A stretch of 64,000 bases of DNA, taken from a phage. A program made the translations under genes and the position numbers. The notes beneath the pieces were generated by a model. The model was not told where the DNA came from. It saw only the letters and a list, made by a program, of their open reading frames with translations, and ran no database searches. This document shows, piece by piece, positions 13,819-58,091 of this stretch; positions within the stretch are counted from its first letter, which is position 1; every line of letters starts with the position of its first letter. Location: assembly GCA_026188615.1 (NCBI GenBank), contig GCA_026188615.1_4525.1; one strand, 5' to 3'.

Positions 13819-13848
13819 ATAGTATCACACATCCATGTGTTTGTAAAC
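13819..13848 (-). promoter_or_regulatory. Early-promoter cassette (TTTACA -35, 17-bp spacer, TACTAT -10) with inverted repeat
   Basis: Minus strand GTTTACaaacacatggatgtgtgaTACTAT; one of at least 14 similar cassettes in the window. Confidence 0.45.
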
Positions 13849-15935
13849 TATCCTTGGATAAATTTAAACGGAACTGATTCTAAATCCATTAAAGATGCTA
13901 ACAATTTCAAACCTTTAGGTGCACTAGTTTTTTCTACAAATGAGGCAAAAGATACCGGCTCATCTGATTCGATTTCACCCGTCATAGCAACTACCTCGCC
14001 TGTTTCCATGAGAACATCACCATCGTAAATGACAGCTTCGTCCAACTGGTCCGAGGACATGACTTCAGCTTGAATAAATTTAAGGTTGGATTCTAAACCT
14101 GCACCAGTGTCAGATGACGCATCTGTAATTTTATTTATCTGCAAGAGAATGCCTCTAGGCAAAATAATTTCTTGCTCATTAGGGTGATTACTCAACTGTC
14201 CGGGATAAATCACGTTAACTTTATGAGCGCCATCGATAGCCCATCCAACGTTAACACGGATTTGTTCTGGTGCATGCATAGCTGTTCTTACTTGGCTAGG
14301 AGAAATAGTAACACCTTCGTCATTATTATCAATGTTAAGCTCTTTGCGAACTTCTTCAGGAGCAAGTCCAAGGGCAACGTTCTCTTTAAACCCGCCGAAA
14401 ATAATAGGAGCTAGTGAAGTGGAAACATAGTTTCTGAAGTAGAATACCTTATTTTTAACCATTGCTTCGTAAATAGGCATTCTGATAGACTGGGCTCTAT
14501 ACAACGTTAGTCCTTCAGGTAAACGGTCTCCATTTAAAAACGCCGAATCAAGACCATCAATAGCGCGTTTAACTTCATCTTCATCTGCAACATCATAAAA
14601 ATCCGGTTTATAACGGCCTAACAACATATTATTGATATCGGTATACGCAGAAGAGGCATATTCGCGAATAGCTCGTTTTTCAGCAACAGAGTATTGTTTA
14701 GGGTCCCGATTCATTGTTATATTAAAGGTGCCTCTAGCCGATTCTCGTGCATAGGTATACATCACATTAGACAAGAACGCTGATTTACGTTGTTTCCAAG
14801 TTTTTTCAGATACTTCAGCTAAAACATCGTCGGCCAGTTGGAAATTATCACGTCTAAAATCTTCAAACCATTCGTCTTTAATAGAGTCCGCAATTTCGTT
14901 TGCAGCTTCAACAAAAGCAGCTAATGCTTTAACAGATGTTGTTTTTTCAGTTTTAATTTTCTTAGCAAACTTTTCTAAAGTTGGCTTAATAACACTACCA
15001 TAAGAAACTTCATCAGCAAATCTAAAGGATTCATCAATACGATTATAAATCTTATTTTCGATATCAGCAACTAAAGTGCCTTTTGCTGTGGATGATGCTT
15101 GAGCTAGTACGATTTCATATGCTTCAGGAAGTAATTCGGCTGTAGCCGGGCCACTAACTTCTTTAGCAGAATTTTCGTATTTCTGGAATAACTCACCTTC
15201 TTGGCGGTCAGCTTCTAAAGATTGACTTGCTGCAATAGCACGACGAGAAATTTTAGTACGAGCAATAACAGGCTTATCTTTACGTTTTTCTTCTACAGCA
15301 GCAATAGAACCAGCGATAGCCGTTTCTTTGGTGACCTTTTCGCCGGTCTTTTTACTCACATAAACTTCGCCAACATCAGAATCTACTTTCGCGTACAACT
15401 CTGTGTTAATGTTAGGGATGCCTTTAATATCTTCAATGTTGGCATTTTTACGAACCATCATCACATAGGTGTGTTTACCTGTGAATTGATACATTGCCGA
15501 CAATACTTTAAAACGACCGCCGGTTTTAGTAGAAACTAAACGAGCAAGAAGAGTTTGAAGCTGCTGTCCACGTCCTTTCAATTTCTTGGTAGGGAACCGG
15601 AACAGAACTGCATCCATACGAAGAGCTTTAACCCGTTCATATACTGTATTGAAAATAGTGTTGATTGCATCAATAGGAGCAGGACCAAGGCCATTTTTCA
15701 ATTCAGCGAGATTACCCTTTTCAGACAGACTCATAATAACAACATGAGCGTATTTGTCGCCAAGTTTAACTTGTTTTACAGCGTCGCCTTCGGAAAGGTA
15801 AGAGAATAAACGAACTACGATGTTTGTATCGATATCACCAATTTTCCAGACTTGTGGAACTTTAGCTTTAGGGTTCAAATTGACGACAGGAAGACTGCCT
15901 TCAGATTCAAACACTTCATTTAATTGTTCAGACAT
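13848..15935 (-). CDS. alt: Alt-like ADP-ribosyltransferase (packaged, modifies host RNA polymerase)
   Basis: 695 aa; C-terminal ART-like region (LYRAQ...FRNYVSTSL); position between genes 54 and 30 as in T4. Confidence 0.7.
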   Translation of the reverse strand: MSEQLNEVFESEGSLPVVNLNPKAKVPQVWKIGDIDTNIVVRLFSYLSEGDAVKQVKLGDKYAHVVIMSLSEKGNLAELKNGLGPAPIDAINTIFNTVYERVKALRMDAVLFRFPTKKLKGRGQQLQTLLARLVSTKTGGRFKVLSAMYQFTGKHTYVMMVRKNANIEDIKGIPNINTELYAKVDSDVGEVYVSKKTGEKVTKETAIAGSIAAVEEKRKDKPVIARTKISRRAIAASQSLEADRQEGELFQKYENSAKEVSGPATAELLPEAYEIVLAQASSTAKGTLVADIENKIYNRIDESFRFADEVSYGSVIKPTLEKFAKKIKTEKTTSVKALAAFVEAANEIADSIKDEWFEDFRRDNFQLADDVLAEVSEKTWKQRKSAFLSNVMYTYARESARGTFNITMNRDPKQYSVAEKRAIREYASSAYTDINNMLLGRYKPDFYDVADEDEVKRAIDGLDSAFLNGDRLPEGLTLYRAQSIRMPIYEAMVKNKVFYFRNYVSTSLAPIIFGGFKENVALGLAPEEVRKELNIDNNDEGVTISPSQVRTAMHAPEQIRVNVGWAIDGAHKVNVIYPGQLSNHPNEQEIILPRGILLQINKITDASSDTGAGLESNLKFIQAEVMSSDQLDEAVIYDGDVLMETGEVVAMTGEIESDEPVSFASFVEKTSAPKGLKLLASLMDLESVPFKFIQG

Positions 15936-15970
15936 AGTGTTTTCCTTTTAGTAATAATTTATATTTATGC

Positions 15971-15991
15971 CAAAAAGAGCCCGAAGGCTCT
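15971..15991 (-). terminator. Hairpin agagcc-UUCG-ggctct followed by a U-run (minus strand)
   Basis: Seen directly; lies between the ligase block and alt. Confidence 0.5.
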
Positions 15992-16200
15992 TAATCCACA
16001 ATAGGAAGCAAAGTACGATAAACTTCAAAATTAGAGCCTTTTTCGTACTTATCGAAATTGTCCATAAAAATATGATAGGAATCGTTATTAGGAAAATCTA
16101 ATATAATCTGAGAGCAAGAGGTGGAAACATCTCCACCATCCTTCTTAGCTACAATAACTGTTTCTAAATAAGCTTTCATTATAAACCTGTCTGGGACCAC
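15991..16200 (-). CDS. Hypothetical protein, 69 aa
   Basis: ORF in track; overlaps the ligase stop. Confidence 0.4.
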   Translation of the reverse strand: MVPDRFIMKAYLETVIVAKKDGGDVSTSCSQIILDFPNNDSYHIFMDNFDKYEKGSNFEVYRTLLPIVD

Positions 16201-19236: not shown

Positions 19237-19438
19237 TTATAATTTCAACATCAGCCCAATGTCCGTATCCAGGTATACGGTCTTCGATAGATAAATTTCT
19301 GTCATTTTTAGGCATTTTAATTGACGTAACGTATGGTTCTAAACGGTTTTCCGCGTAATATGGAAAAACGTCGGTTACACGATAAGTAACTTCAATCATT
19401 TCCGTACCAAACAATTTCTGGATTAATTTATTCAACAT
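19220..19438 (-). CDS. Hypothetical protein, 72 aa
   Basis: ORF in track. Confidence 0.4.
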   Translation of the reverse strand: MLNKLIQKLFGTEMIEVTYRVTDVFPYYAENRLEPYVTSIKMPKNDRNLSIEDRIPGYGHWADVEIISVKDV

Positions 19439-19625
19439 GTTTCAACCCTTTAATAGGAGATAACTCTTTACCCATACGTATGTCAGAAGTCCCATCAACC
19501 CATTGAACAGCATACGCTTCATTGATAATTCCAGCGGCAGTTTTAAATTCGTTGAGAACTTTAAAAATCATCCCAGGGATTCCAACACCTTTTAATTGGA
19601 CTGTTTGTGCTATTAAAAATTTCAT
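19428..19625 (-). CDS. Hypothetical protein, 65 aa
   Basis: ORF in track. Confidence 0.4.
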   Translation of the reverse strand: MKFLIAQTVQLKGVGIPGMIFKVLNEFKTAAGIINEAYAVQWVDGTSDIRMGKELSPIKGLKHVE

Positions 19626-19679
19626 ATTTTTCCACTTACTAAAGAAATCATTATACTCTAATCCGTCCTTGGATGTACA

Positions 19680-20294
19680 CTACTTAATGAAATTAATTTC
19701 TACCGGATGAACAACAGGTTGAGCAGTGATATATTGAGTAATTGCTTTCATGACTAGAGCTTCAGAACCAGGATTTTTCTCAACGAATTCACGTGCTAGG
19801 TTATGAGCTTCGAGTTCACTCAATAAACCGGAACGCTGGCATCCACGGTCTTGAGTACCCTGTTCAGATAAAAGGACTACTACATATTTTTCATCGTCGT
19901 AGGGCTTAGCCAGTTGAGCAAATGTTCCTTTACTTCCAAAAGGAGAGTTATGTCGCCACATCACGCCGTGAGGAGTTTCAACCTTCGTATATTCGTGCGG
20001 TCCATTTTTCTTAGTTTCTTGATGTGGAACTTCATAGACCTTAGGGTTAGGACATTCAATAAAATGCTCATCTAAATCGGTCGAGAATATTAAAGTAAAA
20101 CAATTACTGAATTTACCAACACCGGCCTGATAAATTTTACCTTCAGAAGTTCTAATTTCACAAACCGAGCCGGCATCAGTAACTTCTAAAACTTCAAAAG
20201 GCTCGATAAGGTCATATGAGAACATGTTTTTAAGGCGTGGAGTAATATCCCCATTTTTAAAATTCATTTTATAAAAAGTATTAACTTTAAACAT
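19680..20294 (-). CDS. Hypothetical protein, 204 aa
   Basis: Track ORF trimmed to ATG 20294 (MFKVNTFYK), which has SD GAGGAA upstream; a UUCG hairpin (20303..20318) sits in the intergenic gap. Confidence 0.45.
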   Translation of the reverse strand: MFKVNTFYKMNFKNGDITPRLKNMFSYDLIEPFEVLEVTDAGSVCEIRTSEGKIYQAGVGKFSNCFTLIFSTDLDEHFIECPNPKVYEVPHQETKKNGPHEYTKVETPHGVMWRHNSPFGSKGTFAQLAKPYDDEKYVVVLLSEQGTQDRGCQRSGLLSELEAHNLAREFVEKNPGSEALVMKAITQYITAQPVVHPVEINFIK

Positions 20295-20695: not shown

Positions 20696-20736
20696 TTTAT
20701 TCTCCAGATGTTTAAGTTGTTTGTTGGTACAGGTCT

Positions 20737-20765
20737 ATAATAACATAACCTGTACCAAAGTAAAC
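20737..20765 (-). promoter_or_regulatory. Early-promoter cassette with 9-bp inverted repeat (ggtacaggt / acctgtacc)
   Basis: Minus strand GTTTAC, 17 bp, TATTAT. Confidence 0.45.
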
Positions 20766-20769
20766 TGTT

Positions 20770-21138
20770 TTATGCAACTTTAATCCAATTGTCTAAATTT
20801 AAAACACCTTTGGCTTTCATTTTTTCGATCAGGTTATCTGCTGTAATGCGTCCATTTTGATACCATGTAACATCTTCAGAGTAACCAGTTTCTTCGTCAA
20901 CATATGTTTCTGAACGAATTTTACCGGTAATAATAGTTTTTAATTCATATGTGTCACCTGTGAAAAAGTTTGCTAACACAATTTTCCAAGAGAAATCATC
21001 TGAAGGACCTTCAGGGGTCATACAACCTACGAACTCAAATTGCTCTTTGTATAACATCCACTGGAATTCTTTAATTTCGATAGCTTTATAACCGTCGTGG
21101 TCTTTACATTTGATGTATGAGTTCAGATTGATTTTCAT
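20770..21138 (-). CDS. Hypothetical protein, 122 aa
   Basis: ORF in track. Confidence 0.5.
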   Translation of the reverse strand: MKINLNSYIKCKDHDGYKAIEIKEFQWMLYKEQFEFVGCMTPEGPSDDFSWKIVLANFFTGDTYELKTIITGKIRSETYVDEETGYSEDVTWYQNGRITADNLIEKMKAKGVLNLDNWIKVA

Positions 21139-21180
21139 TTTGTTCTCCGGTTTGTTTTATCGATTAGGTGGTACAAGTCT

Positions 21181-21209
21181 ATAGTAACACATCCTACAGG
21201 AGAGTAAAC
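21181..21209 (-). promoter_or_regulatory. Early-promoter cassette
   Basis: Minus strand GTTTAC, 17 bp, TACTAT. Confidence 0.45.
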
Positions 21210-21240
21210 ATCTTTTTTAAACTTTTTCTGCCCTAAACGC

Positions 21241-21264
21241 ACAAAAGGGAGACCGAAGTCTCCC
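21241..21264 (-). terminator. Intrinsic terminator gggagac-UUCG-gtctccc plus U-run
   Basis: 7-bp GC-rich stem; the same hairpin sequence recurs at 38345..38362. Confidence 0.6.
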
Positions 21265-21269
21265 TAAAA

Positions 21270-22784: not shown

Positions 22785-23355
22785 AAAAGTTTCGGATTTG
22801 TTCCCAATTCAGAGAACGAAGATTATTACGAGAGTACTGAATTACTTCAATACCGGCTTGTTTTAGAATGTCTGCCCAATTTTCAGGAGATCTGTCATAT
22901 AATTCTGCGTATACAACCTTTTTAATACCTGACTGTGTAATAGCTTTAGTGCAATCAGGACACGGAGAAAGCGTCGTATATAACGTAGCACCTTCAATAG
23001 AATTACCTTTACGAGCTGCAAACAAAATTGCATTCAATTCAGCATGGATTTCGTTATTAGCAGACCATGCACTATGAGCGGCCCGATGTTCTTTAGCCAA
23101 AACAAAATTATCCACCCGTCCAAATGCTGTAGTGCCTTCTTTATGCCCAGCAACGATGACCGGGCTTGGTTTATTCTTCAACCAACCGTTTTCGGATGCA
23201 TGTTCGCAACAGTTTGTACCACCTGAAGGAGAGCCATTATAACCTGTAGAAATAATGCGTCCATCTTTTTCAATGACGGCGCCAACTTTCCATGAACAAC
23301 ATTTTGATTCTTGAGAAATCAGATATGCAATCTGAAGGTATGTGCTAGCTTTCAT
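22774..23355 (-). CDS. cd: dCMP deaminase
   Basis: 193 aa; zinc-binding HAE ... PCPDC cytidine/deoxycytidylate deaminase signature. Confidence 0.85.
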   Translation of the reverse strand: MKASTYLQIAYLISQESKCCSWKVGAVIEKDGRIISTGYNGSPSGGTNCCEHASENGWLKNKPSPVIVAGHKEGTTAFGRVDNFVLAKEHRAAHSAWSANNEIHAELNAILFAARKGNSIEGATLYTTLSPCPDCTKAITQSGIKKVVYAELYDRSPENWADILKQAGIEVIQYSRNNLRSLNWEQIRNFCGE

Positions 23356-24347
23356 TATTGAACCTTATTAATATAAGTTAACAGCTCTTTAGTTTGTTCC
23401 CAACTGATGCACGCATCGGTAACGGAAACGCCATAGGACATATTATCAGAAATTTTTTGATTTCCTTCATGTAGGAACGATTCTATCATAATTCCTTTGA
23501 CCAAATCATTAGCTGCTAAATTTTTACCAATACCAATTTGATTGCTATAATGCCCATCAGCGTTTGCATGGCTACAGTCAACCATTACATAATGATTCAG
23601 ACCTACTGCCCTTGCTTTGTTAGAAGCTTCTTGAATATCAGAAGAATGATAGTTCGGGCCGTTGGTCCCGCCACGCAATACGATATGCGTATTCTGATTA
23701 CCTTCAGCTTCAACAATGCCTACAGTACCATCGACGTCCATACCCATATACCGATGAGGCCAGGCGGCACTATACATCGCGTCTGTAGCTACTTTAATAG
23801 AACCATTGGTTGCGTTCTTGAAGCCTACGCACATCGGTAGACCTGAAGCAATTTCACGATGTGTCTGACTTTCAGTCGTACGGGCGCCAATAGCAACCCA
23901 TGAGAAAATACCAGAAAGATACTTAATCGTGAATGGGTCTAATACTTCAGTTGCTAATGGAAGTCCCATACGTAGAAGTTTACGACACAATGTTCGTGCA
24001 ACTATAAGACCGTGGTTCATATCAAAACTTCCGTCAAGATATGGATCATTTACAAGACCTTTCCAACCTACGGTAGTTCGAGGCTTTTCAAAATAAACGC
24101 GCATCACTAACAGAACATTAGGAAGACGAGTTTGAAGTTCAGCCAGGCGTTTGCCGTATTCAACAGCAGCAATAGGGTCATGAATTGAACAAGGACCTAC
24201 AACGATAAGTTTGCGTGGGTCTTCACCATTCATAATCGAATTAACTTGTTCGCGATGAGAAGCCACTTGTGATGCGTAAGCTTCCGACAAAGGAATAATC
24301 TCAGCCAGTTCTTTTGGAGAAATAAGTTTTCCGACGACAGGTAACAT
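23355..24347 (-). CDS. Class I 3-deoxy-D-arabino-heptulosonate-7-phosphate (DAHP) synthase, AroG/F/H-like
   Basis: 330 aa; motifs GPCSIHD, VMRVYFEKPRTTVGWKGL, GARTTESQTHRE, VGFKN, LRGG, EGNQ, SVTDACISW; stop codon overlaps the cd ATG (TAATG). Confidence 0.85.
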   Translation of the reverse strand: MLPVVGKLISPKELAEIIPLSEAYASQVASHREQVNSIMNGEDPRKLIVVGPCSIHDPIAAVEYGKRLAELQTRLPNVLLVMRVYFEKPRTTVGWKGLVNDPYLDGSFDMNHGLIVARTLCRKLLRMGLPLATEVLDPFTIKYLSGIFSWVAIGARTTESQTHREIASGLPMCVGFKNATNGSIKVATDAMYSAAWPHRYMGMDVDGTVGIVEAEGNQNTHIVLRGGTNGPNYHSSDIQEASNKARAVGLNHYVMVDCSHANADGHYSNQIGIGKNLAANDLVKGIMIESFLHEGNQKISDNMSYGVSVTDACISWEQTKELLTYINKVQ

Positions 24348-24355
24348 AACAATCC

Positions 24356-24544
24356 TTAGGAGATATAAACAGATTCTGATTCAACAATACCTTTAACCGG
24401 ATTAGACAGGCTAAGTTGGTAGTGCTCAGATTTATGACCATTCTCGATAGTAATGAGAGCTATCTCATTATAGTGTTCCATATACTCGAGTTGCTTCAAC
24501 AAGACCATCACTGCATAATTTAAGATTAGTAATTTGGTCACCAT
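24356..24544 (-). CDS. Hypothetical protein, 62 aa (start uncertain)
   Basis: ORF in track; overlaps the next ORF, so the true start is probably internal. Confidence 0.3.
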   Translation of the reverse strand: MVTKLLILNYAVMVLLKQLEYMEHYNEIALITIENGHKSEHYQLSLSNPVKGIVESESVYIS

Positions 24545-24704: not shown

Positions 24705-24732
24705 TTCTATTTCCTCATTTGTTGGTAGAGTT

Positions 24733-24762
24733 ATAGTATCACAACTCCACCATGTTGTAAAC
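24733..24762 (-). promoter_or_regulatory. Early-promoter cassette
   Basis: Minus strand GTTTAC, 18 bp, TACTAT. Confidence 0.45.
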
Positions 24763-24764
24763 CA

Positions 24765-25040
24765 TTAAATTGCTTTGCATTCAATTTTTTGTGTACCGAA
24801 ATTGATATCACATTGGATAACTAAATCGCCGTCAAGATCAAATACCACGATGACGTGTGCAGACCCAGGGAGAAGAGTAATAGCAATAGAATCTACTTGG
24901 TCTGGGAGCAAAGCATTGAGTACATGAGTTACTTGAGCATGAACTCTGAGTTCGGCTGCGTTATCAAGCACTTCAAACATATTATTAGCAATAATCTGAC
25001 TGAAGACTACCTTTACAATTTCAGAATAAGTTGGGAACAT
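24765..25040 (-). CDS. Hypothetical protein, 91 aa
   Basis: ORF in track. Confidence 0.45.
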   Translation of the reverse strand: MFPTYSEIVKVVFSQIIANNMFEVLDNAAELRVHAQVTHVLNALLPDQVDSIAITLLPGSAHVIVVFDLDGDLVIQCDINFGTQKIECKAI

Positions 25041-26531: not shown

Positions 26532-26532
<1 letters not shown>

Positions 26533-26831
26533 TATTTGATTCCTAAGAAAGCTTCAAGAATACGAATGTTGAGTTCGCGCCGGTCTTTATTAATTTCAGC
26601 AACGTTTTTATTAATTGACGTACTTCTAACGTTTGAAGAAATAAATTTAATCATATGACTTTTGAGTTGTTGCAAATCCAACCCTTTTTCTTTAGCAGCT
26701 TTACGAAGAGCTTTACCTGCTTCATCTAGTGCCTTTGCTGCATCTTTGTCATAATCTACAAGTGTCATTCCACGGCAGATATCAATATACTCATCAGACC
26801 GTTTGATGTAATTCTCTAGTAATGTTTTCAT
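26532..26831 (-). CDS. Hypothetical protein, 99 aa
   Basis: ORF in track. Confidence 0.45.
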
Positions 26832-26859
26832 TTAGATTTCCTCAATTATCCATAGGAGC

Positions 26860-26889
26860 ATTATACTCTGCTCCCGAGAGTTTGTAAAC
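26860..26889 (-). promoter_or_regulatory. Early-promoter cassette (GTTTAC, 18 bp, TATAAT), near-identical to the one at 57289..57318
   Basis: agcattatactctgctcccgagagtttgtaaac here versus agcattatactctgctctcaagagtttgtacaa there. Confidence 0.5.
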
Positions 26890-27113
26890 TATTTTACTAA
26901 AGATTCAATATACTCATGAAGAGCTTTAGTCGCTACTGCCCACTTATTCTGATATTCATTTTTCAGATTAGCACGAGACTGAACTAACAAGCGGTCATTA
27001 GTCGGAGGCAAAGATTCTAATCGTTGAATCTGGCGTCCATAAATCATAGCCGCCATTTCAGATTCATAGATAAGCCCTTTAATGTATTCATGCTGTTCTT
27101 TAGTCATTGGCAT
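26889..27113 (-). CDS. Hypothetical protein, 74 aa
   Basis: ORF in track. Confidence 0.45.
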   Translation of the reverse strand: MPMTKEQHEYIKGLIYESEMAAMIYGRQIQRLESLPPTNDRLLVQSRANLKNEYQNKWAVATKALHEYIESLVK

Positions 27114-28235: not shown

Positions 28236-28264
28236 AATTTTCTCCTCGTGTTGTTGATAAACCC

Positions 28265-28294
28265 ATAGTATCACCATCCTTGGTGTTTGTAAAC
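28265..28294 (-). promoter_or_regulatory. Early-promoter cassette
   Basis: Minus strand GTTTAC, 18 bp, TACTAT. Confidence 0.45.
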
Positions 28295-28296
28295 CG

Positions 28297-29430
<1,134 letters not shown>

Positions 29431-29447
29431 TCAGTTAGTTTTTTTAA

Positions 29448-29476
29448 ATTGTACCACAATCCTTGTGGTATGTAAA
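29448..29476 (-). promoter_or_regulatory. Early promoter for rnlA (TTTACA, 17 bp, TACAAT) with inverted repeat ccacaa/ttgtgg in the spacer
   Basis: Read directly on the minus strand. Confidence 0.5.
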
Positions 29477-29887
29477 CTACTTTTTCTTATGTTGGATATT
29501 CCAAGGCGGGTTGAACTTTTTGATAAAAAGTGGTTCTTCAAGGTCCATTGTTGCGATGGTCATTGAACCAAGTTCGTTGGTGACTGAAAGGTCAAAACAT
29601 TGGCGGGCCCAGAATTCAACCTTTTTGCCTTGCATTAAGGCATCCAAAATCATAAGTGATTTTCTTGAATCTGAAGTCTGGTCTTTTCGATTTATGGCTG
29701 TTCGATAATAGTTAATGCGTTTCTTTAAATTCTTGGTTTTACCAATATACACAAGTTCGTCATCTATAGCAATAGCGTATATGACATTTTTCTTATTAGG
29801 GACATCAACTGTTTTAATTGTTGCATCTTCTAATAGCTCCAATTCTGTATATTTAATAAAGGAATATTCGGCGGCAATATCTTTCAT
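29477..29887 (-). CDS. denA: Endonuclease II (GIY-YIG family)
   Basis: 136 aa; GIY-YIG-like block (VIYAIAIDDELVYIGKTKNLKKRINYY); position between rnlA and nrdB as in T4. Confidence 0.7.
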   Translation of the reverse strand: MKDIAAEYSFIKYTELELLEDATIKTVDVPNKKNVIYAIAIDDELVYIGKTKNLKKRINYYRTAINRKDQTSDSRKSLMILDALMQGKKVEFWARQCFDLSVTNELGSMTIATMDLEEPLFIKKFNPPWNIQHKKK

Positions 29888-29913: not shown

Positions 29914-30416
29914 TTAGAAATATTTTTTGTATGAATTGATTACATTTTGGTCTACATCATTATCAATTTGTGCGACAAGATAAGAACTGATTTCAACTTC
30001 CTGAGGAGCTGCTTGAACTAAATCAGAGTTCAGATATTCACGAATCCATGGAATAGGATGACGAGTTGATACGTCTTTAAGAGGACATGGCAGACCACAA
30101 CTACGCATACGAGACACGGTAAGATAATCCACAAATTCACTTAGGATTTTAACATTTAGACCTGGAAGAGCACCATCTTTAAACAAGTGTTCAGCCCATT
30201 CTTTTTCTTGAGCGTTAACTTCCATGAAAATATCAACTGCTTCTTGTTCACACTCTTGAGCAATTTTGACCCATTCATCACCGTCTTCGCCATCTTGTAA
30301 AGCACGAATAATATATTGAGTGCCCTTAAGGTGGAGCTGTTCATCACGAGCAATGAACTTCATAATCTTGGCATTACCTTCCATGATTTCCATGTTCTTA
30401 TGGAAGTTAAAGGTAC
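29914..30416 (-). CDS. nrdB: Ribonucleotide reductase small subunit NrdB, exon 2
   Basis: After splicing the junction reads FYVSFA-C-TFNFHKNMEIMEGNAK, matching the conserved NrdB FYVSFACSFAF..MEGNAK region; C-terminal tail VAQIDNDVD. Confidence 0.8.
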
Positions 30417-30551
30417 CGTATGTTCGATTGAGCTCGCTAATTCTCAACCCGTTCTCTTATGAACTGCTGCATGTTACCATGCAGTCCAGACTATATCACA
30501 ATCCCGGAGGGATTCTCCCCATTTCGAGTCGCTTGACCCTACGTCCGAAGA

Positions 30552-31361
30552 CTAGTCGTTGAACCTTGCTTTGCAATTGTCGCCGTGCCATCGTTTATAT
30601 GTTGATGGTGATAAATCTTTCTTATCACAATATGGACAATTCAATTGAATTCTATTTGGATTTAATTTACATCTGTCATTATGTTTTAGATAAAATCCAG
30701 GACCTTTACCAATGTGACCACAGAAATCACATGTGATTTCTTTTTGTGCAGGATGGGTCCCGTTCTTAACCATTTCTAATGTTTTTGCTGATGTTCTTTT
30801 CTTATGGTCTTCTGATAAGAAATGATGTGAACCGTCATTTACCCGTTTTGATTGAGTTTCTGACTGCATTTTACCACCGCAAAATACATGAGTACCTTCT
30901 TTTATAGCTGCAATATTGCGTTCTTTAACTTTTGCAATATGCTCAGCTTGTTGAAAATTATGTATACCTAATGCAACTCTATTTAAATTAGATTTACGCT
31001 GTATTTCACCGTCTAAAAGATGAAATGTACCATTTTCTATCTTAGATTTAATAGAGGCAATATTTTTAGCTCGTACTTCAGGGATATTAAAAATCTGGAT
31101 TTCTCTAGATTTTGCGGCTTTAGAAGCTAATTCAGAAATTTCTTCAGGAGAATATTTCATTCTAAGCTTTATAGCATGACAAGCCTGGTAATCTTTTTGA
31201 GCTAAATGTATATCATAATGTTCCTGTATAGAAAGGCACATCAAATTATCTAAATCATTATTTTCACGGTTACCGTCTTTATGATGGATTTCGTATGTTC
31301 TTCCATCAGAATCTTTAGGTATAGGTCCGTTAGCATCTATCCAAATTTTTCTATAGTTCAA
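30552..31361 (-). CDS. I-TevIII: Intron-encoded HNH homing endonuclease (I-TevIII-like), 269 aa
   Basis: HNH motif YEIHHKDGNRENNDLDNLMCLSIQEHYDIH and C-terminal Cys4 zinc fingers; apparent TTG start with SD GAGGA 7 nt upstream (the nearby ATG is out of frame). Confidence 0.75.
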   Translation of the reverse strand: MNYRKIWIDANGPIPKDSDGRTYEIHHKDGNRENNDLDNLMCLSIQEHYDIHLAQKDYQACHAIKLRMKYSPEEISELASKAAKSREIQIFNIPEVRAKNIASIKSKIENGTFHLLDGEIQRKSNLNRVALGIHNFQQAEHIAKVKERNIAAIKEGTHVFCGGKMQSETQSKRVNDGSHHFLSEDHKKRTSAKTLEMVKNGTHPAQKEITCDFCGHIGKGPGFYLKHNDRCKLNPNRIQLNCPYCDKKDLSPSTYKRWHGDNCKARFND

Positions 31362-31388
31362 TTGTGCATCCTCTTAAAAGTATAATCA

Positions 31389-31396
31389 TATTTATA
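31389..31396 (-). promoter_or_regulatory. Late promoter (TATAAATA on the minus strand) inside the intron, 28 bp upstream of the endonuclease ORF
   Basis: Plus strand reads TATTTATA. Confidence 0.45.
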
Positions 31397-37804: not shown

Positions 37805-37839
37805 TTTATTCTCCGCTTCACTTTTGATTTGATAGGGCT

Positions 37840-37869
37840 ACTATAACATAGCCCTATCTTGTTATAAAC
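37840..37869 (-). promoter_or_regulatory. Early-promoter cassette with perfect 10-bp inverted repeat (gatagggcta / tagccctatc) around the -10
   Basis: Minus strand GTTTAT, 18 bp, TATAGT. Confidence 0.45.
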
Positions 37870-38255
37870 TACTTTTTAAAAGTTTTTTGCAAAAGTTCGA
37901 TTATTTCGTCGACGTTGGTTTCATCTACGATACAATGGATTTTTGTTACACCTAAAGTTATACCTTCGTTAGTAGGTTGAGGCTTTACTAAATCTACCTC
38001 AGTAAAGTATTTGAATTCTTCAGAGTAAATCTCAAAATACGTCTCAAGTGGGCCACCAGCCGTGTATTCAGTGCCATCTTCCATAGTTACACGTACCACA
38101 CATTCACCAGCGCAATCATCACTTTCCATTTCATCTACAACAAAACTAGGTCCGTGCTTCTCTATTAAATTTAGCATCATTACATTGCAACGGCACTCGT
38201 TAGCAAAGTCATTTTTAAATAAAGGGTTAATGATATAAGTTTTTCCGATTTCCAT
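37869..38255 (-). CDS. Hypothetical protein, 128 aa
   Basis: ORF in track. Confidence 0.45.
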   Translation of the reverse strand: MEIGKTYIINPLFKNDFANECRCNVMMLNLIEKHGPSFVVDEMESDDCAGECVVRVTMEDGTEYTAGGPLETYFEIYSEEFKYFTEVDLVKPQPTNEGITLGVTKIHCIVDETNVDEIIELLQKTFKK

Positions 38256-38284
38256 TTTGATTTCCTCATGTTGTTGATATGTCT

Positions 38285-38313
38285 ATACTAACACATCCAG
38301 GGAAGAAGTAAAC
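38285..38313 (-). promoter_or_regulatory. Early-promoter cassette
   Basis: Minus strand GTTTAC, 17 bp, TAGTAT. Confidence 0.45.
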
Positions 38314-38338
38314 AACTTTTTCGGCAATTTACAGATAC

Positions 38339-38362
38339 TCAAAAGGGAGACCGAAGTCTCCC
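38339..38362 (-). terminator. Intrinsic terminator downstream of gene 32 (gggagac-UUCG-gtctccc plus U-run)
   Basis: Same hairpin sequence as at 21247..21264. Confidence 0.6.
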
Positions 38363-41549: not shown

Positions 41550-41581
41550 ATGAACCTCTTGTTCAGTTAGTCAACTTGTCT

Positions 41582-41610
41582 ATAGTAACACACTCATTTG
41601 AAAGCGTAAA
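41582..41610 (-). promoter_or_regulatory. Early-promoter-like cassette upstream of rnh
   Basis: Minus strand TTTACG, 17 bp, TACTAT. Confidence 0.4.
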
Positions 41611-41626
41611 TAGTCTTTTACTCATT

Positions 41627-52448: not shown

Positions 52449-52482
52449 AACGTTTTATTCATTCCATTTGGTTGATATGAGT

Positions 52483-52512
52483 ATAGTACCATTATCAGTG
52501 TTGATTGTAAAC
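52483..52512 (-). promoter_or_regulatory. Early promoter for asiA (GTTTAC, 18 bp, TACTAT)
   Basis: Read directly on the minus strand. Confidence 0.5.
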
Positions 52513-52710
52513 AGCTTTTTCTACACTTTTAACGTAATCAGTGTAGTCTTCCTGTTCATACGAGTGTAAGGCCAAGAATGCGGCTAATAGTTCATTATAG
52601 ACTAAAGCCTCACGCTCACGTTCTGCCTCTACTACGTTCTGAAGATTATGGCTCATATCATTCCTTATAACTATCAATGTAGTCCTGTATGTCAAAGAAT
52701 GACATTTCAT
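52495..52710 (-). CDS. Hypothetical ORF, 71 aa (uncertain; overlaps the next ORF and the asiA promoter)
   Basis: ORF in track; likely shorter (internal start) or non-coding. Confidence 0.3.
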   Translation of the reverse strand: MKCHSLTYRTTLIVIRNDMSHNLQNVVEAEREREALVYNELLAAFLALHSYEQEDYTDYVKSVEKAVYNQH

Positions 52711-54309: not shown

Positions 54310-54942
54310 TCACAGTACGTTAGTTACAAGGGTAATGATTTCTTTGGACACATTAGGGAAGTCAATGTAAGTATATTTACCACCGATCTTAATCTTAACA
54401 TCATTTTCAAGAGAAGTAAACAGCTTTGATTCAGTTTCTGACATGTTGTATGCAAAGATTCTAAGAGCGCCATCTCGACGAATTTCGATCTGACGAATAC
54501 CTAGAACTCGTTTTGCAAATCGAACTTCTAAGTTACTACGGTTTTCACCAATTTCTTTAACTTCAACTTTATCTTTAATATTTTCAAAAACAAAGTTTGC
54601 TAATTCATGCATTTCAGGAGTAACTCCACGTGCTTTTCTAGTGTTACGTTTCTGAAGAAGTTCTGGAGCATTTTCTTGGGCAAAGAGGTCTGCAGCTTTT
54701 TGGATAATATCCATTGCTTCACCTGTTGCTATAAGTCCATCACCGGATTTTTCGACTAAACCTTTCTTAATCAATACACCGATGTTAGAGTTAACAACTG
54801 ATGCATTGTATTCCGCTTCCAGAGCTTCACGGACATTGGCAGCAGTGGTGAAGTTGTTCTTAATGATATAAACCATTATTGCAGCAGTTTTTTCATTCAG
54901 AGCGTTTTCAGAAGCTTTGATGATGTAAGTAACTTTAGACAT
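54310..54942 (-). CDS. motA: MotA middle-transcription activator
   Basis: 210 aa; N-terminal region colinear with T4 MotA (MSKVTYIIKAS...VVNSNIGVLIKKGLVEKSGDGLI). Confidence 0.8.
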   Translation of the reverse strand: MSKVTYIIKASENALNEKTAAIMVYIIKNNFTTAANVREALEAEYNASVVNSNIGVLIKKGLVEKSGDGLIATGEAMDIIQKAADLFAQENAPELLQKRNTRKARGVTPEMHELANFVFENIKDKVEVKEIGENRSNLEVRFAKRVLGIRQIEIRRDGALRIFAYNMSETESKLFTSLENDVKIKIGGKYTYIDFPNVSKEIITLVTNVL

Positions 54943-54980
54943 TTTATTTCTCCAATTTGGTTGTTTTGTTTTGATAGGTC

Positions 54981-55010
54981 TATAATATCACGTTTGAAGC
55001 ACATGTAAAC
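54981..55010 (-). promoter_or_regulatory. Early promoter for motA
   Basis: Minus strand GTTTAC, 18 bp, ATTATA. Confidence 0.45.
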
Positions 55011-55025
55011 TGTTTTGTGAGAAAA

Positions 55026-55052
55026 AATGCGCAAAAGGGAGCCGAAGCTCCC
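55026..55052 (-). terminator. Intrinsic terminator downstream of gene 52 (gggagc-UUCG-gctccc plus U-run)
   Basis: Seen directly. Confidence 0.6.
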
Positions 55053-56454: not shown

Positions 56455-56458
56455 ATTT

Positions 56459-56745: not shown

Positions 56746-56797
56746 TTTAATTACCTCACAAATAAATTAAAGGCCTAACTTAATAGGCCTGTATAAA

Positions 56798-57244: not shown

Positions 57245-57288
57245 GCTAATTTCCTCAATTGATTAATGTTTTTGTAATCCATGAGAGC

Positions 57289-57318
57289 ATTATACTCTGC
57301 TCTCAAGAGTTTGTACAA
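57289..57318 (-). promoter_or_regulatory. Early-promoter cassette (TTGTAC, 18 bp, TATAAT), near-duplicate of 26860..26889
   Basis: Read directly on the minus strand. Confidence 0.5.
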
Positions 57319-57320
57319 TT

Positions 57321-57521
57321 TTATTCGGCTATATCAGAACGTTCAAAAAGCTCTTCAACAGTTAAACATTCAGTGTCATCTTCAATAAAGAATCGAGTCC
57401 AACACGTTGGGGCGATACAGTTATGAGTTTGTCCGGCGATAGAAGCTACACGAATAAGCTGCTGACCATTATTCAGAACAAATTTTTCACCAATTTCAAC
57501 ATCTTTAAAAAGCTTAGCCAT
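57321..57521 (-). CDS. Hypothetical protein, 66 aa
   Basis: ORF in track. Confidence 0.45.
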   Translation of the reverse strand: MAKLFKDVEIGEKFVLNNGQQLIRVASIAGQTHNCIAPTCWTRFFIEDDTECLTVEELFERSDIAE

Positions 57522-57549
57522 TTTGTGTTCCTCATGTTTCAGTAGGACT

Positions 57550-57579
57550 ACTATACCATAATCCTACTGTGTTGTAAAC
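57550..57579 (-). promoter_or_regulatory. Early-promoter cassette with inverted repeat (gtaggact / aatcctac)
   Basis: Minus strand GTTTAC, 18 bp, TATAGT. Confidence 0.5.
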
Positions 57580-57771
57580 AATTAAATTACATTAAAATAT
57601 GTTAAAGCCAACCATGTTCCAGTGAACGAACATGCAATGTAAAAAACCGTATCACAAAATGTTCTTAGTACAATAAGAAGTGCATTTTTCATAAGTACCT
57701 CAACACAATTGAAAATATTATACAAATCATTGGGATACTAAGCAACCATATTCCTATCCACATTTTAGAGC

Positions 57772-58035
57772 TCATATCTCAACTTCCGTGAGTTCCATAT
57801 ATCCTTTGTTGATAACCTCTTTAAGGTCTTTAGAAAGAATAACGTTAAAATGGTCGTTCATATGTCCGTTAACTAAACGAGTTATTTCGGCTTCAGATGA
57901 CATATAAGGCACGTCTGAGTCCCAATGAGATAGACCCAAATGGGTGTAAATCATCCCTTCGTCATCTGCAGTGTTGTACATTGAAACAAATTCGCCTGTT
58001 ACTTTATGTTTTGCGTAGAAAAATTTAAATTTCAT
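57772..58035 (-). CDS. Hypothetical protein, 87 aa
   Basis: ORF in track. Confidence 0.45.
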   Translation of the reverse strand: MKFKFFYAKHKVTGEFVSMYNTADDEGMIYTHLGLSHWDSDVPYMSSEAEITRLVNGHMNDHFNVILSKDLKEVINKGYMELTEVEI

Positions 58036-58061
58036 GATGTTATCCTCTTTTAGATAGGACT

Positions 58062-58091
58062 ACTATATCATAGTCCTACTTAGTTGTAAAC
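58062..58091 (-). promoter_or_regulatory. Early-promoter cassette with inverted repeat (taggact / agtccta)
   Basis: Minus strand GTTTAC, 18 bp, TATAGT. Confidence 0.5.

Follow-up and report, generated by a model that had tools for sequence, protein, structure and literature searches.

Early-promoter modules of a Mosigvirus and the stem-loops around the -10 element in about half of them

Results and Discussion

A T4-type early-promoter motif before minus-strand genes

What is the role of a promoter-like module that recurs before the minus-strand early genes of a phage and often places its -10 element within an inverted repeat? We addressed this question in the window, the whole stretch of 64,000 nucleotides that was analyzed. 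The window is from a Mosigvirus, an RB69-like T4-type phage, and showed 97.9% identity to Mosigvirus AlbertHofmann. A first-pass annotation had described the module as (G)TTTAC, a gap of 17 or 18 nt and TAnnnT, read on the minus strand, and we found this arrangement at all 15 cited sites, each with a minus-strand start codon 20-40 nt downstream. The -35 element was exactly GTTTAC at 12 of the 15 sites and varied at the other three (GTTTAT at 37840, ATTTAC at 41582 and TTGTAC at 57289), and the gap was 18 nt in 11 copies and 17 nt in four. Modules are named here by the cited coordinate, approximately the low end of the -10 element, or by the G of the -35 element (24733 is the same module as 24762). 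The predicted promoters, the terminators that precede some of them and the additional matches are as follows.

1034..1082, minus strand: additional match (G at 1070), ORF-internal; GTTTAC-N18-TACTAT, weight-matrix score 24.4
13812..13860, minus strand: early promoter before an alt.-3-like ORF (ATG 13789); -35 13843..13848, -10 TACTAT 13819..13824
19643..19692, minus strand: additional candidate promoter (G at 19680), uncited in the first-pass annotation, before ORF 19428..19625; GTGTAC, 19-nt gap, TATAAT 19650..19655
20724..20777, minus strand: early promoter of the 30.7 orthologue (ATG 20695); -35 20760..20765, -10 TATTAT 20737..20742
within 21174..21265, minus strand: early promoter before ORF 20770..21138; -35 21204..21209, -10 TACTAT 21181..21186
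21246..21265, minus strand: intrinsic terminator preceding the 21181 promoter, AGGGAGAC-TTCG-GTCTCCCT and T-run
24723..24774, minus strand: early promoter between cd.3 and cd.2 (ATG 24704); -35 24757..24762, -10 TACTAT 24733..24738
26849..26901, minus strand: early promoter before ORF 26532..26831; -35 26884..26889, -10 TATAAT 26860..26865
28258..28306, minus strand: early promoter of alc (ATG 28235); -35 28289..28294, -10 TACTAT 28265..28270
29441..29489, minus strand: early promoter of rnlA (ATG 29421); -35 29472..29477, -10 TACAAT 29448..29453
37831..37881, minus strand: early promoter of the frd.1 orthologue (ATG 37804); -35 GTTTAT 37864..37869, -10 TATAGT 37840..37845
within 38278..38362, minus strand: early promoter before the frd.2 orthologue (ATG 38255); -35 38308..38313, -10 TAGTAT 38285..38290
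38345..38362, minus strand: intrinsic terminator preceding the 38285 promoter, GGGAGAC-TTCG-GTCTCCC and T-run
41575..41623, minus strand: early promoter of rnh (ATG 41549), which faces gene 34 across a divergent gap; -35 ATTTAC 41606..41611, -10 TACTAT 41582..41587
52476..52524, minus strand: early promoter of asiA (ATG 52448); -35 52507..52512, -10 TACTAT 52483..52488
within 54975..55052, minus strand: early promoter of motA (ATG 54942; cited as 54981); -35 55005..55010, -10 TATTAT 54982..54987
55037..55052, minus strand: intrinsic terminator preceding the motA promoter, GGGAGC-TTCG-GCTCCC and T-run
57278..57330, minus strand: early promoter of ndd (ATG 57244); -35 TTGTAC 57313..57318, -10 TATAAT 57289..57294
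57540..57591, minus strand: early promoter of ndd.1 (ATG 57521); -35 57574..57579, -10 TATAGT 57550..57555
58054..58103, minus strand: early promoter of ORF 57772..58035; -35 58086..58091, -10 TATAGT 58062..58067

The motif was more frequent than base composition predicts. GTTTAC-N17/18-TANNNT occurred 15 times on the minus strand of the window and not once on the plus strand; dinucleotide shuffles predicted 1.0 ± 1.0 occurrences for each strand. Twelve of these strict matches were cited sites, and the remaining three lay at 1070 (position of the G), 54421 and 13036; the latter two are ORF-internal and probably due to chance. When a weight matrix built without the stem positions was scanned over both strands of the window, 17 matches were found on the minus strand and none on the plus strand, namely the 15 cited sites and those with their G at 19680 and 1070. 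The match at 1070 is plausible but uncertain: it was followed by neither a Shine-Dalgarno (SD) sequence nor an ATG, and may be a chance occurrence or an internal promoter. A generic TTGACA/TATAAT scan of the window gave 67 sites against 64 expected, and the promoter signal is thus specific to the T4-type motif.

The module consensus, aAaaAA..GTTTAC..N..TGnTAnnAT, combines an A-tract, GTTTAC and an extended TG -10 element, with TG at -15/-14 in 13 of the 15 listed promoter sequences by manual count. By sequence match to the published T4/RB69 early consensus, the motif is that of a T4-type sigma-70 early promoter; this consensus and the RB69-like identity of the phage both favor the early-promoter reading of the first-pass annotation. 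Nolan et al. (2006, PMC1524935) predicted 57 early promoters of this type across the RB69 genome, and the module at 24733 is orthologous to the annotated T4 early promoter Pe133295. The modules share with the T4/RB69 class (PMC1524935; Hinton 2010, PMC2988021) the GTTTAC -35 element, the TAnnnT -10 element extended by a GT-rich stretch, an A-rich tract at -40 to -44, a preference for C at -3 to -1 and the location before early genes. No difference in kind was evident, although the descriptions of that class in these two papers make no mention of stems.

The downstream genes include alt.-3, 30.7, cd.2, alc, rnlA, frd.1, frd.2, rnh, asiA, motA, ndd and ndd.1. The gaps between the minus-strand early genes are very short, and the modules are packed into them in a constant order: the upstream gene's stop codon, in many cases a TAG overlapping GTTTAC, an A-rich UP-like tract, GTTTAC, the 17-18 nt gap, TGnTAnnAT, a conserved AGnCCTATC start region, and the SD sequence and ATG. 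For example, the alt stop TAG overlaps the G of GTTTAC at 13819, and the denA stop TAG overlaps the -35 element at 29448.

Inverted repeats around the -10 element

The first-pass annotation had stated that most copies form a perfect inverted repeat of 6-11 bp. The repeats were confirmed, but "most" was not, as strong stems were present in seven of the 15 copies, or about half. A perfect Watson-Crick stem of at least 6 bp embraced the -10 element in six copies, and the seventh, 24733, had 9 bp including one G.T. The strong hairpins, all on the minus strand, are listed below with predicted RNA folding energies (dG in kcal/mol).

20748..20758 / 20724..20734, minus strand: module 20737, perfect 11 bp with the -10 element in the loop; dG -17.9, z -6.7
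24743..24752 / 24723..24732, minus strand: module 24733, TGGTGGAGTT/AACTCTACCA with one G.U; dG -16.9, z -5.9
26869..26875 / 26854..26860, minus strand: module 26860, GGGAGCA/TGCTCCT, perfect stem 6 bp; dG -12.2
37849..37858 / 37831..37840, minus strand: module 37840, perfect 10 bp; dG -18.7, z -8.0
57298..57305 / 57282..57289, minus strand: module 57289, 8 bp; dG -13.9, z -4.8
57559..57569 / 57540..57550, minus strand: module 57550, 8 bp, or 11 bp with one U.G (T.G in DNA); dG -16.8, z -5.3
58071..58079 / 58054..58062, minus strand: module 58062, perfect stem 8 bp; dG -13.2, z -4.8

The repeat given earlier as an example, gatagggcta/tagccctatc at 37831..37858, was indeed perfect over 10+10 bp. 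Across the seven strong hairpins, RNA dG ranged from -12 to -19 kcal/mol and z from -2.9 to -8. In each strong stem, the 5' arm occupied spacer positions that the promoter elements leave free (about -26 to -16), the 3' arm ran from the last base of the -10 element to about +2 to +7, and the TG and most of the -10 element lay in the loop. At its 3' end, each helix reached 2-7 nt beyond the predicted +1.

The remaining eight cited copies comprised two with 5-bp stems and six at the background of 3-4 bp. Pairing at 13819 was weak, with GGATG/CATCC (5 bp) around the -10 element or, alternatively, a spacer hairpin of ACACAT (13835..13840) and ATGTGT (13827..13832), and asiA (52483) had only the 5-bp repeat TGATA/TATCA. 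Only a short spacer hairpin was found at 28265 (CACCA 28281..28285 / TGGTG 28272..28276, loop AGGA). At 29448, the 3' arm of a spacer hairpin (TACCACAA 29463..29470 / TTGTGGTA 29452..29459; dG -8.3, z -3.1) overlapped the TG and the beginning of the -10 element. No stem was found around the -10 element at 21181 or motA (55010), no strong one at 38285, and no hairpin at 41582 (rnh). The spacer TTCTTC at 38285 can pair with the SD sequence GAGGAA. With a strong stem missing from eight of the 15 cited promoters, the hairpin is not required for promoter function.

The mean best stem was 5.87 bp when each promoter kept its own halves and 3.81 bp when the 3' half of another promoter was swapped in, and none of 20000 permutations reached the observed value (p<5e-5). 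This control strips out similarity that arises from shared descent of the consensus. The copies at 26860..26889 and 57289..57318, previously reported as nearly identical, matched at 26/30 positions, which makes the former promoter a paralogue of the ndd promoter; 57550 and 58062 likewise matched at 26/30, with a median of 18/30 across all pairs.

Conservation and covariation across phages

The same hairpins were found at the orthologous promoters of T4 and of Dhaka-, Gapriver-, Karam- and Moonvirus phages, with compensatory substitutions. The stem sequence at 20737 was conserved in T4, RB69, TH54 and WG01, and the frd.1 promoter (37840) had a hairpin at its orthologues in six genera with differing arm sequences. 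The cd.2 promoter arms were GGTAGAGTT/AGCTCTACC in T4, GGTGGAGTT/AACTCTACC in the window and GGTAGGACT/AGTCCTACC in WG01. Between the ndd hairpin and its paralogue at 26860 (26889), a G-C pair was replaced by A-U in a compensatory manner, and in the ndd.1 hairpin (57550) one A-U pair was G-C in RB69, while other isolates carried one-sided intermediates.

Among 66 unselected promoters from six genera, the pairing was register-specific, with a Watson-Crick fraction of 0.43 compared with 0.20-0.30 in shifted registers, and runs of at least 7 pairs occurred in 20 promoters compared with 5.4 in permutations (maximum 12). The covariation score was 0.269 against 0.219 ± 0.016 in shuffled sets (0/500), and slid controls gave at most 0.163. 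Internal transition mismatches in 51 unique helices were 12 G.T and one A.C, or by manual count about nine independent G.T events and one A.C. Sense-strand RNA folds were also more stable than antisense folds across all 101 cores (Wilcoxon p=4.5e-4). Because G.T outnumbers A.C 12 to 1, the data suggest selection for pairing on the sense strand, for which read-through RNA is the simplest setting. Strand-biased mutation could contribute partly to the G.T excess, and a sense-strand DNA hairpin would still be compatible with it, as G.T is the least destabilizing mismatch in single-stranded DNA as well. The earlier proposal that the hairpins form in read-through RNA is thereby supported indirectly, by the covariation and the sense-strand G.U bias. 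Hairpins were present in none of 17 terminator-preceded promoters compared with 37 of 81 others when unique sequences were counted, although this exclusion lost significance per orthologous group (0/4 versus 13/36, p=0.28).

Comparison with known systems

Arbiol et al. (2010, PMC2839356) defined the PeSL as an arrangement in which an AT-rich tract containing an upstream stop codon precedes an early promoter, after which come a stem-loop, an SD sequence and a start codon, with the stem-loop most commonly between the boxes or in overlap with the -10 box. They also described T-even analogues in which T4 early promoters carry stems that are weaker and richer in AT, and Comeau et al. (2014, PMC4122927) extended the concept to T4/PST and nt-1/KVP40. 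These two papers bear out the statement that such modules have been described as mobile regulatory cassettes. The modules of the window are real and functional, and they are new examples of this type. They share with the PeSLs of phi1/RB49, T4/PST and nt-1/KVP40 the order of parts, the position of the stem-loop, G-T pairs in stems, clustering in early plastic regions before small ORFs of unknown function, and the coincidence of some copies with ORF gain or loss; the T4/PST consensus TTTACW-N17-TAYWAT (PMC4122927) equals the promoter consensus of the window. Some differences were present. The host is an RB69-like Mosigvirus, untreated in those papers; the stems are A/T-richer and varied, whereas those of RB49 are GGGG...CCCC; only about half of the promoters have a stem; and many hairpin copies are conserved orthologues before 30.7, cd.2, frd.1 and ndd rather than markers of variable junctions.

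Classical rho-independent terminators, GC-rich with a UUCG loop and a T-run, precede three modules of the window (21209, 38313 and 55010). In contrast, the stems around the -10 element were weaker on the antisense strand and had no U-tract on the sense strand, where the sequence continues AUCAACAAC..., so classical intrinsic termination is not expected from them.

Possible roles of the hairpins

We consider it likely that the modules are sigma-70 early promoters, about half of them with a PeSL-type stem-loop, and that the hairpin acts as an attenuator or insulator in read-through RNA. In duplex DNA, the module would act as a promoter. A transcript from its own promoter would not form the hairpin, because the predicted start site lies within the 3' arm, while a transcript from an upstream promoter would carry both arms and could fold. 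The fold would separate the upstream from the downstream cistron by premature termination or by a block to 3' exonucleases, and would give the downstream gene's long mRNA a structure unlike that of its short one. The attenuator role is proposed by analogy with one reporter experiment in a different phage, in which a phi1 PeSL stem-loop and the rrnB T1 terminator lowered the expression of a downstream lacZ to the same degree (PMC2839356); unmutated PeSL promoters were too strong for cloning in the same study. As the copies are alike, they might also serve as short homology patches for gain and loss of small ORFs, within the limits set by their modest pairwise identity (median 18/30).

A related reading, which overlaps this one and departs from it solely in the consequence of the fold that counts, is that the hairpins control translation of the downstream gene, as in T4 e, soc, 49 and I-TevI (PMC3014915). 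The long transcript would be structured near the ribosome binding site and the short one, started inside the hairpin, would be open, so that translation follows the gene's own early promoter. The geometry is the same, with the promoter inside a hairpin that can fold only in transcripts from further upstream. Spacer-SD pairing is also present in relatives (RB69 TTCTCCTCTGGT/ACCAGAGGAGAA, T4 TGTTCTTCCGTGG/CTATGGAGGAACA, KM16 and EcL8g TCTCCATTT/AAATGGAGA), complementarity of at least 7 pairs occurred in 14 of 93 promoters against 4.5 expected (0/5000 permutations reach it), and three hairpins of the window (24762, 57579 and 58091) end only about 6 nt before the SD sequence. However, the T4 examples use late promoters (TATAAATA) and their helix sequesters the SD sequence or AUG, whereas both lie outside all seven strong hairpins of the window, which stop 5-21 nt short of the SD sequence (in four of them, 5 nt at 26889, 16 at 37869, 18 at 20765 and 21 at 57318). 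We regard this role as unlikely. It is less probable still that the repeats are DNA-only signals, forming hairpins or cruciforms that promote cassette exchange or loop inversion without an RNA function. PeSLs have been proposed to mediate the shuffling of modules and the formation of mini-circles, and crossovers have been mapped to the stem-loop or next to it (PMC2839356). In T4, an old sequence of cloned DNA (X03007.1) has the 14-nt loop of the cd.2 promoter in exactly the opposite orientation between the 7-bp arms. For the two promoters tested, however, the inverted loop was in no complete genome; orthologous hairpins are fixed in place across six genera rather than at variable junctions; and the mismatch asymmetry and sense-over-antisense stability point to a single strand of the transcribed sense.

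The first-pass annotation had also suggested binding sites for a dimeric regulator, for instance a phage protein that covers the -10 element to shut off early promoters, a mechanism described as not fully understood. Centered on the -12/-11 step, the family consensus is already a partial palindrome, halves from different promoters pair at a Watson-Crick fraction of 0.365 in the true register versus 0.20-0.30 in shifted registers, and TAGGnCTA...TAGnCCTA is common to five promoters. Nevertheless, the arms differ between copies, with at least four unrelated types (GGTACAGGT, GGTGGAGTT, GAGAGCA and GATAGGGCTA), and they change by compensatory substitution between orthologues, which a sequence-specific protein would not tolerate. 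There is no reason why a duplex operator should tolerate G.T but not A.C. Moreover, loop length ranges from 5 to 15 nt, orthologues differ in the register of the helix, and the repeat is absent from about half of the promoters; we therefore find an operator function highly improbable. Nearly as improbable is that the repeats are functionless by-products, either quasi-palindromes perfected by template switching during replication or repeats shared by common descent. Templated mutation at quasi-palindromes is classically studied in T4, and some copies are clear paralogues (26/30 identity). Yet template switching predicts neither the 12:1 bias of G.T over A.C nor the conservation of hairpins with changed arms at orthologous promoters, seen across six genera, and the descent-shared consensus was already removed by the own-versus-other-promoter control.

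Possible role of the modules in recombination

The modules had also been proposed as recombination hotspots, for which we found modest support. When distinct indel breakpoints between the window and four other Mosigviruses were counted, three of about 12 lay within 50 bp of a promoter, and the majority lay away from promoters. AlbertHofmann has a 243-bp cassette of promoter and ORF inserted precisely at the motA promoter, and RB69 has an additional promoter and ORF as a cassette precisely at the frd.2 promoter. These promoter-ORF-promoter insertions favor a role of the modules in recombination, but both sites (55010 and 38313) lack a stem around the -10 element, which argues against the stem as the signal. 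At the additional candidate promoter (G at 19680), the lower-coordinate flank (from 19453) is replaced in RB69 and AlbertHofmann, and the promoter is present in phiEC1 and LNA2.

Promoter modules of the window

A 6-kb piece of the window matched 737 T4-type phage records and had 97.9% identity to Escherichia phage AlbertHofmann. AlbertHofmann and RB69 both belong to the genus Mosigvirus, and the window is collinear with the annotated regions of these two phages. Along the window, alt and gene 30 are followed by cd, pseT, alc, rnlA, nrdAB, td, frd and 32, then by the tail-fibre genes 34-38, and finally by asiA, motA, 52, ndd, denB and rII. The plus strand carries the tail-fibre and baseplate blocks, and the minus strand carries the early genes. 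Between cd and cd.2, the ORF at 23355-24347 (330 aa) belongs to the DAHP synthetase I family (E 5e-75); it is also present in AlbertHofmann, where it is annotated as a 'putative aldolase', and RB69 lacks it at that position (breakpoint 23358..24458).

The first-pass annotation had listed 15 copies of one promoter module on the minus strand. We read this strand at each coordinate and found the module at all 15; they are listed here with two additional candidates.

Early-promoter modules of the window. Each is named by the start of its -35 element, with the -10 coordinate in brackets; "stop" marks an upstream stop codon that abuts or overlaps the -35 element.
13848 (13819), minus strand, short stem between the boxes; stop
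20765 (20737), minus strand, perfect 11-bp stem overlapping the -10
21209 (21181), minus strand, stem upstream of the A/T tract, a true terminator
24762 (24733), minus strand, 9-bp stem with one G.T overlapping the -10; stop
26889 (26860), minus strand, perfect 6-bp stem overlapping the -10; stop
28294 (28265), minus strand, short stem between the boxes; stop
29477 (29448), minus strand, short stem between the boxes; stop
37869 (37840), minus strand, perfect 10-bp stem overlapping the -10; stop
38313 (38285), minus strand, stem upstream of the A/T tract, a true terminator
41611 (41582), minus strand, stem-loop in none of the described positions
52512 (52483), minus strand, stem-loop in none of the described positions
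55010 (54981), minus strand, stem upstream of the A/T tract, a true terminator
57318 (57289), minus strand, perfect 8-bp stem overlapping the -10; stop
57579 (57550), minus strand, perfect 8-bp stem overlapping the -10
58091 (58062), minus strand, perfect 8-bp stem overlapping the -10
19680, minus strand, additional candidate
1070, minus strand, additional candidate

The modules are real and highly non-random. The strict pattern GTTTAC-N17/18-TANNNT had 15 minus-strand occurrences and no plus-strand occurrence, compared with about one per strand expected from dinucleotide shuffles, so the motif is commoner than chance. Among the 15 listed sites, the -35 element was exactly GTTTAC in 12 (the others read GTTTAT, ATTTAC and TTGTAC), TAnnnT was present in all 15 at a distance from GTTTAC of 18 nt in 11 and 17 nt in 4, and TG was found at -15/-14 in 13 of the aligned sequences. 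The consensus aligned on the -10 was aAaaAA..GTTTACaa....gGa.tgTG.TA.tAT ag.CcTATc.A.aa, in which the aAaaAA immediately 5' of GTTTAC is an A-rich, UP-like tract (-40 to -44). A weight matrix built from only two blocks, the -35/UP and the extended -10, revealed 17 minus-strand sites and no plus-strand sites in the window, namely the 15 modules and the candidates at 19680 and 1070. An ordinary E. coli (generic sigma-70) consensus showed no enrichment in the window (67 found versus 64 expected), which indicates that the signal is the T4-type motif.

Every module lay 20-40 nt upstream of the minus-strand start codon of an early-gene orthologue, and promoter 24762 aligned with T4 Pe133295. As judged from sequence, their assignment as T4-type sigma-70 early promoters is correct, and the 15-17 modules can be used in annotation as delimiters of the early transcription units of the phage. 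A Shine-Dalgarno (SD) sequence and ATG followed within 40 nt downstream, in the composite order of promoter-early stem-loop (PeSL) cassettes. Upstream, the stop codon of the preceding gene abutted or overlapped the -35 element at seven modules (for example, ...AAAAAGTAGTTTAC). The early intergenic gaps are very short and alike because they are occupied by these modules. At 13848, 26889, 29477 and 37869, the overlap of coding and promoter sequence was extremely tight: the final G of the upstream TAG stop codon is also the G of GTTTAC, and the codons for the C-terminal lysines of the upstream gene lie in the A-rich UP-like tract. The candidate at 1070 (window 1017-1082) is a good early-promoter match within coding sequence; a GC-rich hairpin, CCGAGACAGCTCGG, lies downstream of it, with neither SD nor ATG.

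Stem-loops around the -10 element

To find stems, we looked for the longest stretch of perfect complementarity that the spacer shares with the sequence beginning within the -10. Six copies contained perfect stems of at least 6 bp and 24733 contained a seventh with one G.T, while two of the remaining copies had 5 bp and six were at background. The inverted repeats are therefore real, but strong stems are present in 7 of 15 copies, about half, and not in most copies as first described. The mean best stem was 5.87 for a promoter's own halves versus 3.81 with the 3' half of another promoter, and none of 20000 permutations reached the observed value. Folded as RNA, the seven hairpins had dG values of -12 to -19 kcal/mol and z-scores of -2.9 to -8.0 versus shuffles; of the three shorter stems inside the spacer, only that of 29477 stood out (z -3.1). 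Over 30 nt, both of the best pairs of copies were identical at 26 of 30 positions (median 18/30), which confirmed the near-identity of copies noted previously. Rfam gave no matches over the whole window at the gathering threshold.

The first-pass annotation had stated that such cassettes were described in T4-type phages, and this proved correct. In the most common PeSL type, the stem lies between the boxes or overlaps the -10, and T-even analogues with weaker, A/T-richer stems were reported on T4 early promoters (Arbiol et al. 2010, PMC2839356); the PeSL promoter consensus of T4/PST is TTTACW-N17-TAYWAT (Comeau et al. 2014, PMC4122927). These two reports and the stable stem-loops of the window, located in positions among the five described, identify the modules as PeSL-type cassettes of the T-even kind. 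The reading of early promoter plus stem-loop is thus correct and already published for related phages. Nolan et al. 2006 (PMC1524935) predicted 57 RB69 early promoters that share this consensus and its preference for C at -3 to -1, and did not mention stems at them; the term 'RB69' does not occur in Arbiol et al. 2010 (PMC2839356), which did not treat RB69-like phages, and early-promoter stems receive no discussion in reviews of T4 transcription and post-transcriptional control. Two points are possibly new and would raise the finding slightly over routine annotation: the stems appear ancient and positionally conserved, with compensatory changes of an RNA-like bias that maintain them, and promoter spacers seem commonly to serve as hairpin arms.

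Comparison with other Tevenvirinae

With the Ndd protein as query, IMG/VR yielded only three near-identical loci, and annotated phage genomes were used instead. Matches were obtained to roughly 1000 related Tevenvirinae genomes in GenBank. We compared the early regions of RB69, AlbertHofmann, phiEC1 and LNA2 (Mosigvirus), T4 (Tequatrovirus), WG01 (Dhakavirus), TH54 (Gaprivervirus), EcL8g (Karamvirus) and KM16 (Moonvirus). The matrix scan of these regions revealed 125 matches; 116 were on the early-gene strand, and 101 unique 43-nt cores remained after reduction.

Hairpins recurred at orthologous promoters across the compared phages. In particular, the 30.7 promoter stem (TT)GGTACAGG(T)/(A)CCTGTACC(AA) was kept in T4, RB69, TH54, WG01 and the window. 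The arms of the cd.2 promoter were GGTAGAGTT/AGCTCTACC in T4, GGTGGAGTT/AACTCTACC in the window and GGTAGGACT/AGTCCTACC in WG01; T4 and WG01 differ by three compensated pairs. At the frd.1 promoter, a hairpin was present in six genera, with differing arms and registers. In 66 unselected promoters with an 18-nt gap, the pairing was register-specific and centred on the -12/-11 step: the Watson-Crick fraction was 0.43 in the true register versus 0.20-0.30 when shifted, and runs of at least 7 pairs were found in 20 of the 66 versus 5.4 (maximum 12) with permuted halves. Additionally, the covariation score from pair counting was 0.269, compared with 0.219 +/- 0.016 for shuffles (0/500 reached it) and at most 0.163 for slid controls.

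We also observed that the spacer of the rnlA promoter (window 29448-29477, ATACCACAAGGATTGTGGTAC) is nearly identical to a T4 spacer upstream of denB (48183 in the T4 region, ATACCACAAGGACCGTGGTAC). This similarity at a non-orthologous position suggests that promoter cassettes may have been moved or copied between loci.

Recombination and inversion of the loop

PeSL-type cassettes are thought to aid the gain and loss of small host-takeover genes by T4-type phages, and the modules had been proposed as recombination hotspots. We compared indels between the window and four other Mosigviruses and found about 12 distinct breakpoints, three of them within 50 bp of a promoter. These were a 243-bp insertion at the motA promoter of AlbertHofmann, which gives the promoter-ORF-promoter arrangement expected from a PeSL-type insertion, a 233-bp insertion at the frd.2 promoter of RB69, and one replacement edge at the frd.1 promoter of phiEC1. 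The remaining breakpoints were homing-endonuclease insertions and gene replacements. These data agree only modestly with the proposed PeSL shuffling, and the two cleanest promoter insertions (motA and frd.2) were at promoters without a stem around the -10.

At the motA-52 junction of AlbertHofmann (38957 and 39278 in its region; window 54934-55011), two motA-type promoter copies flank a 71-aa ORF that the window lacks. In the nrdB/nrdA region, the window contains insertions at 30416-31509 and 32183-32884 relative to RB69, AlbertHofmann, phiEC1 and LNA2; the ORFs that they encode, 30552-31361 (HNH_3) and 32179-32877 (HNH and NUMOD3), are homing-endonuclease genes.

The cd.2 promoter of T4 carries a record of inversion. 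Positions 133300-133313 of the T4 RefSeq record (NC_000866) are annotated as 'inverted complement of previously reported sequence; corrects the early promoter Pe133295', and they (14397-14410 in the T4 region) form exactly the 14-nt loop, containing the -10, between the 7-bp arms GGTAGAG/CTCTACC, the orthologue of window 24723-24752. When we reconstructed the promoter with an inverted loop, it matched the old cloned sequence X03007.1 (T4 pseT) at 100% over 141 nt, which implies that the arms can mediate flipping of the -10. A natural promoter-flipping switch was rejected: the inverted cd.2 form was found only in X03007.1, all complete T4-type genomes among the matches listed were native, and no inverted 30.7 promoter was found among 183 records. 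We presume that the inversion in X03007.1 was selected during cloning, such promoters being toxic on plasmids, which is consistent with the report that PeSL promoters were too strong to be cloned unmutated (Arbiol et al. 2010, PMC2839356). In practice, cloning of promoters of this kind can lead to flipping of the -10 by their short inverted repeats.

Pairing in the sense strand

The helix finder that we used treats G.T and A.C alike. Its 51 unique helices contained 428 Watson-Crick pairs, 12 internal G.T and 1 A.C, or roughly 9 G.T versus 1 A.C when counted as independent events. Additionally, RNA of the sense strand folded more stably than RNA of the antisense strand (101 cores, p=4.5e-4). 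The G.T bias and the stability of the sense folds point to pairing within the sense strand, most simply as RNA, and this bias argues against a duplex operator, a symmetric cruciform and an antisense terminator. Binding sites for a dimeric regulator, which had been suggested from the palindromes, are further disfavoured since there are at least four unrelated arm sequences, the arms co-vary, and loop length and register vary; no conserved half-site at fixed spacing was found among the arms. The hairpin at 37831..37858 was the only one flagged as terminator-like, and it lies on the plus (antisense) strand with a weak tail; an antisense terminator was rejected, as RNA of that strand folds less stably and has A.C mismatches in place of the G.U pairs. 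On the transcribed strand, the internal stems were not followed by a U-tract, and the sense-strand tails read AUCAACAAC or similar.

We regard it as possible, rather than probable, that the stems of these T-even-type PeSL cassettes are selected as sense-strand RNA and are not primarily DNA recombination signals, that compensatory substitutions keep them at orthologous early promoters throughout the Tevenvirinae, and that the promoter spacer routinely forms the 5' arm of a hairpin whose 3' arm is the start-site region or the SD of the next gene. The predicted +1 was located 2-7 nt inside the 3' end of the helix, within the 3' arm, in all seven strong hairpins. Both arms would hence be present only in transcripts coming from upstream. 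If the RNA bias holds, a 45-nt stretch would serve RNA polymerase as a DNA signal and also encode an RNA structure confined to upstream transcripts, and read-through and promoter-proximal mRNAs of one gene would be handled differently. To the known PeSL cassettes, the comparative data add that many stems are old, positionally kept and compensated, with a bias towards RNA.

One role for such a structure would be attenuation. One PeSL stem-loop was as effective as the rrnB T1 terminator in reducing the expression of downstream lacZ (Arbiol et al. 2010, PMC2839356). Among unique sequences, none of 17 promoters preceded by a classical terminator had a strong hairpin, versus 37 of 81 otherwise (p=1.7e-4); in the window, a terminator precedes the promoters 21209, 38313 and 55010. 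Per orthologous group, the same contrast was not significant (0/4 versus 13/36, p=0.28), so we keep it only as a hint that the hairpin may be an attenuator standing in for a terminator where genes abut.

Another role would be sequestration of the ribosome binding site. In relatives, the spacer was often complementary to the downstream SD instead, for example TTCTCCTCTGGT/ACCAGAGGAGAA in RB69 and TGTTCTTCCGTGG/CTATGGAGGAACA in T4. Complementarity of at least 7 pairs was found in 14 of 93 promoters, whereas 4.5 would be expected, and the observed number was not attained in any of 5000 permutations. These early promoters repeat the logic of T4 genes e, soc, 49 and I-TevI, and sequestration would occur in read-through transcripts only; if the RNA reading is true, the use of promoter spacers as hairpin arms would be a genome-wide early-gene version of that mechanism. 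The window shares with these genes a promoter-proximal transcript that, from the predicted start site, would lack the 5' arm. Unlike those of e, soc, 49 and I-TevI, the strong helices of the window stop short of the SD, ending 5-21 nt upstream of it, and spacer-SD pairing in the window was weak (5-6 bp) and confined to 21209 and 38313.

Anti-SD (CTCC...) spacers with 8-13 bp of pairing to the downstream SD were observed at 7429 in the RB69 region, at 47904, 11407 and 4190 in the T4 region, and in the regions of further relatives at L010 11620 and 4109, L012 10103 and L013 10458.

The binding consensus of CsrA is RUACARGGAUGU. The spacer hairpins at 13827-13840, 28272-28285 and 29452-29470 have (A)AGGA or GG loops (for example, ACACAUGGAUGUGU) and presumably resemble this consensus, which may be a coincidence; the fold z-scores of the AGGA-loop hairpins were weak, except for that of 29477.
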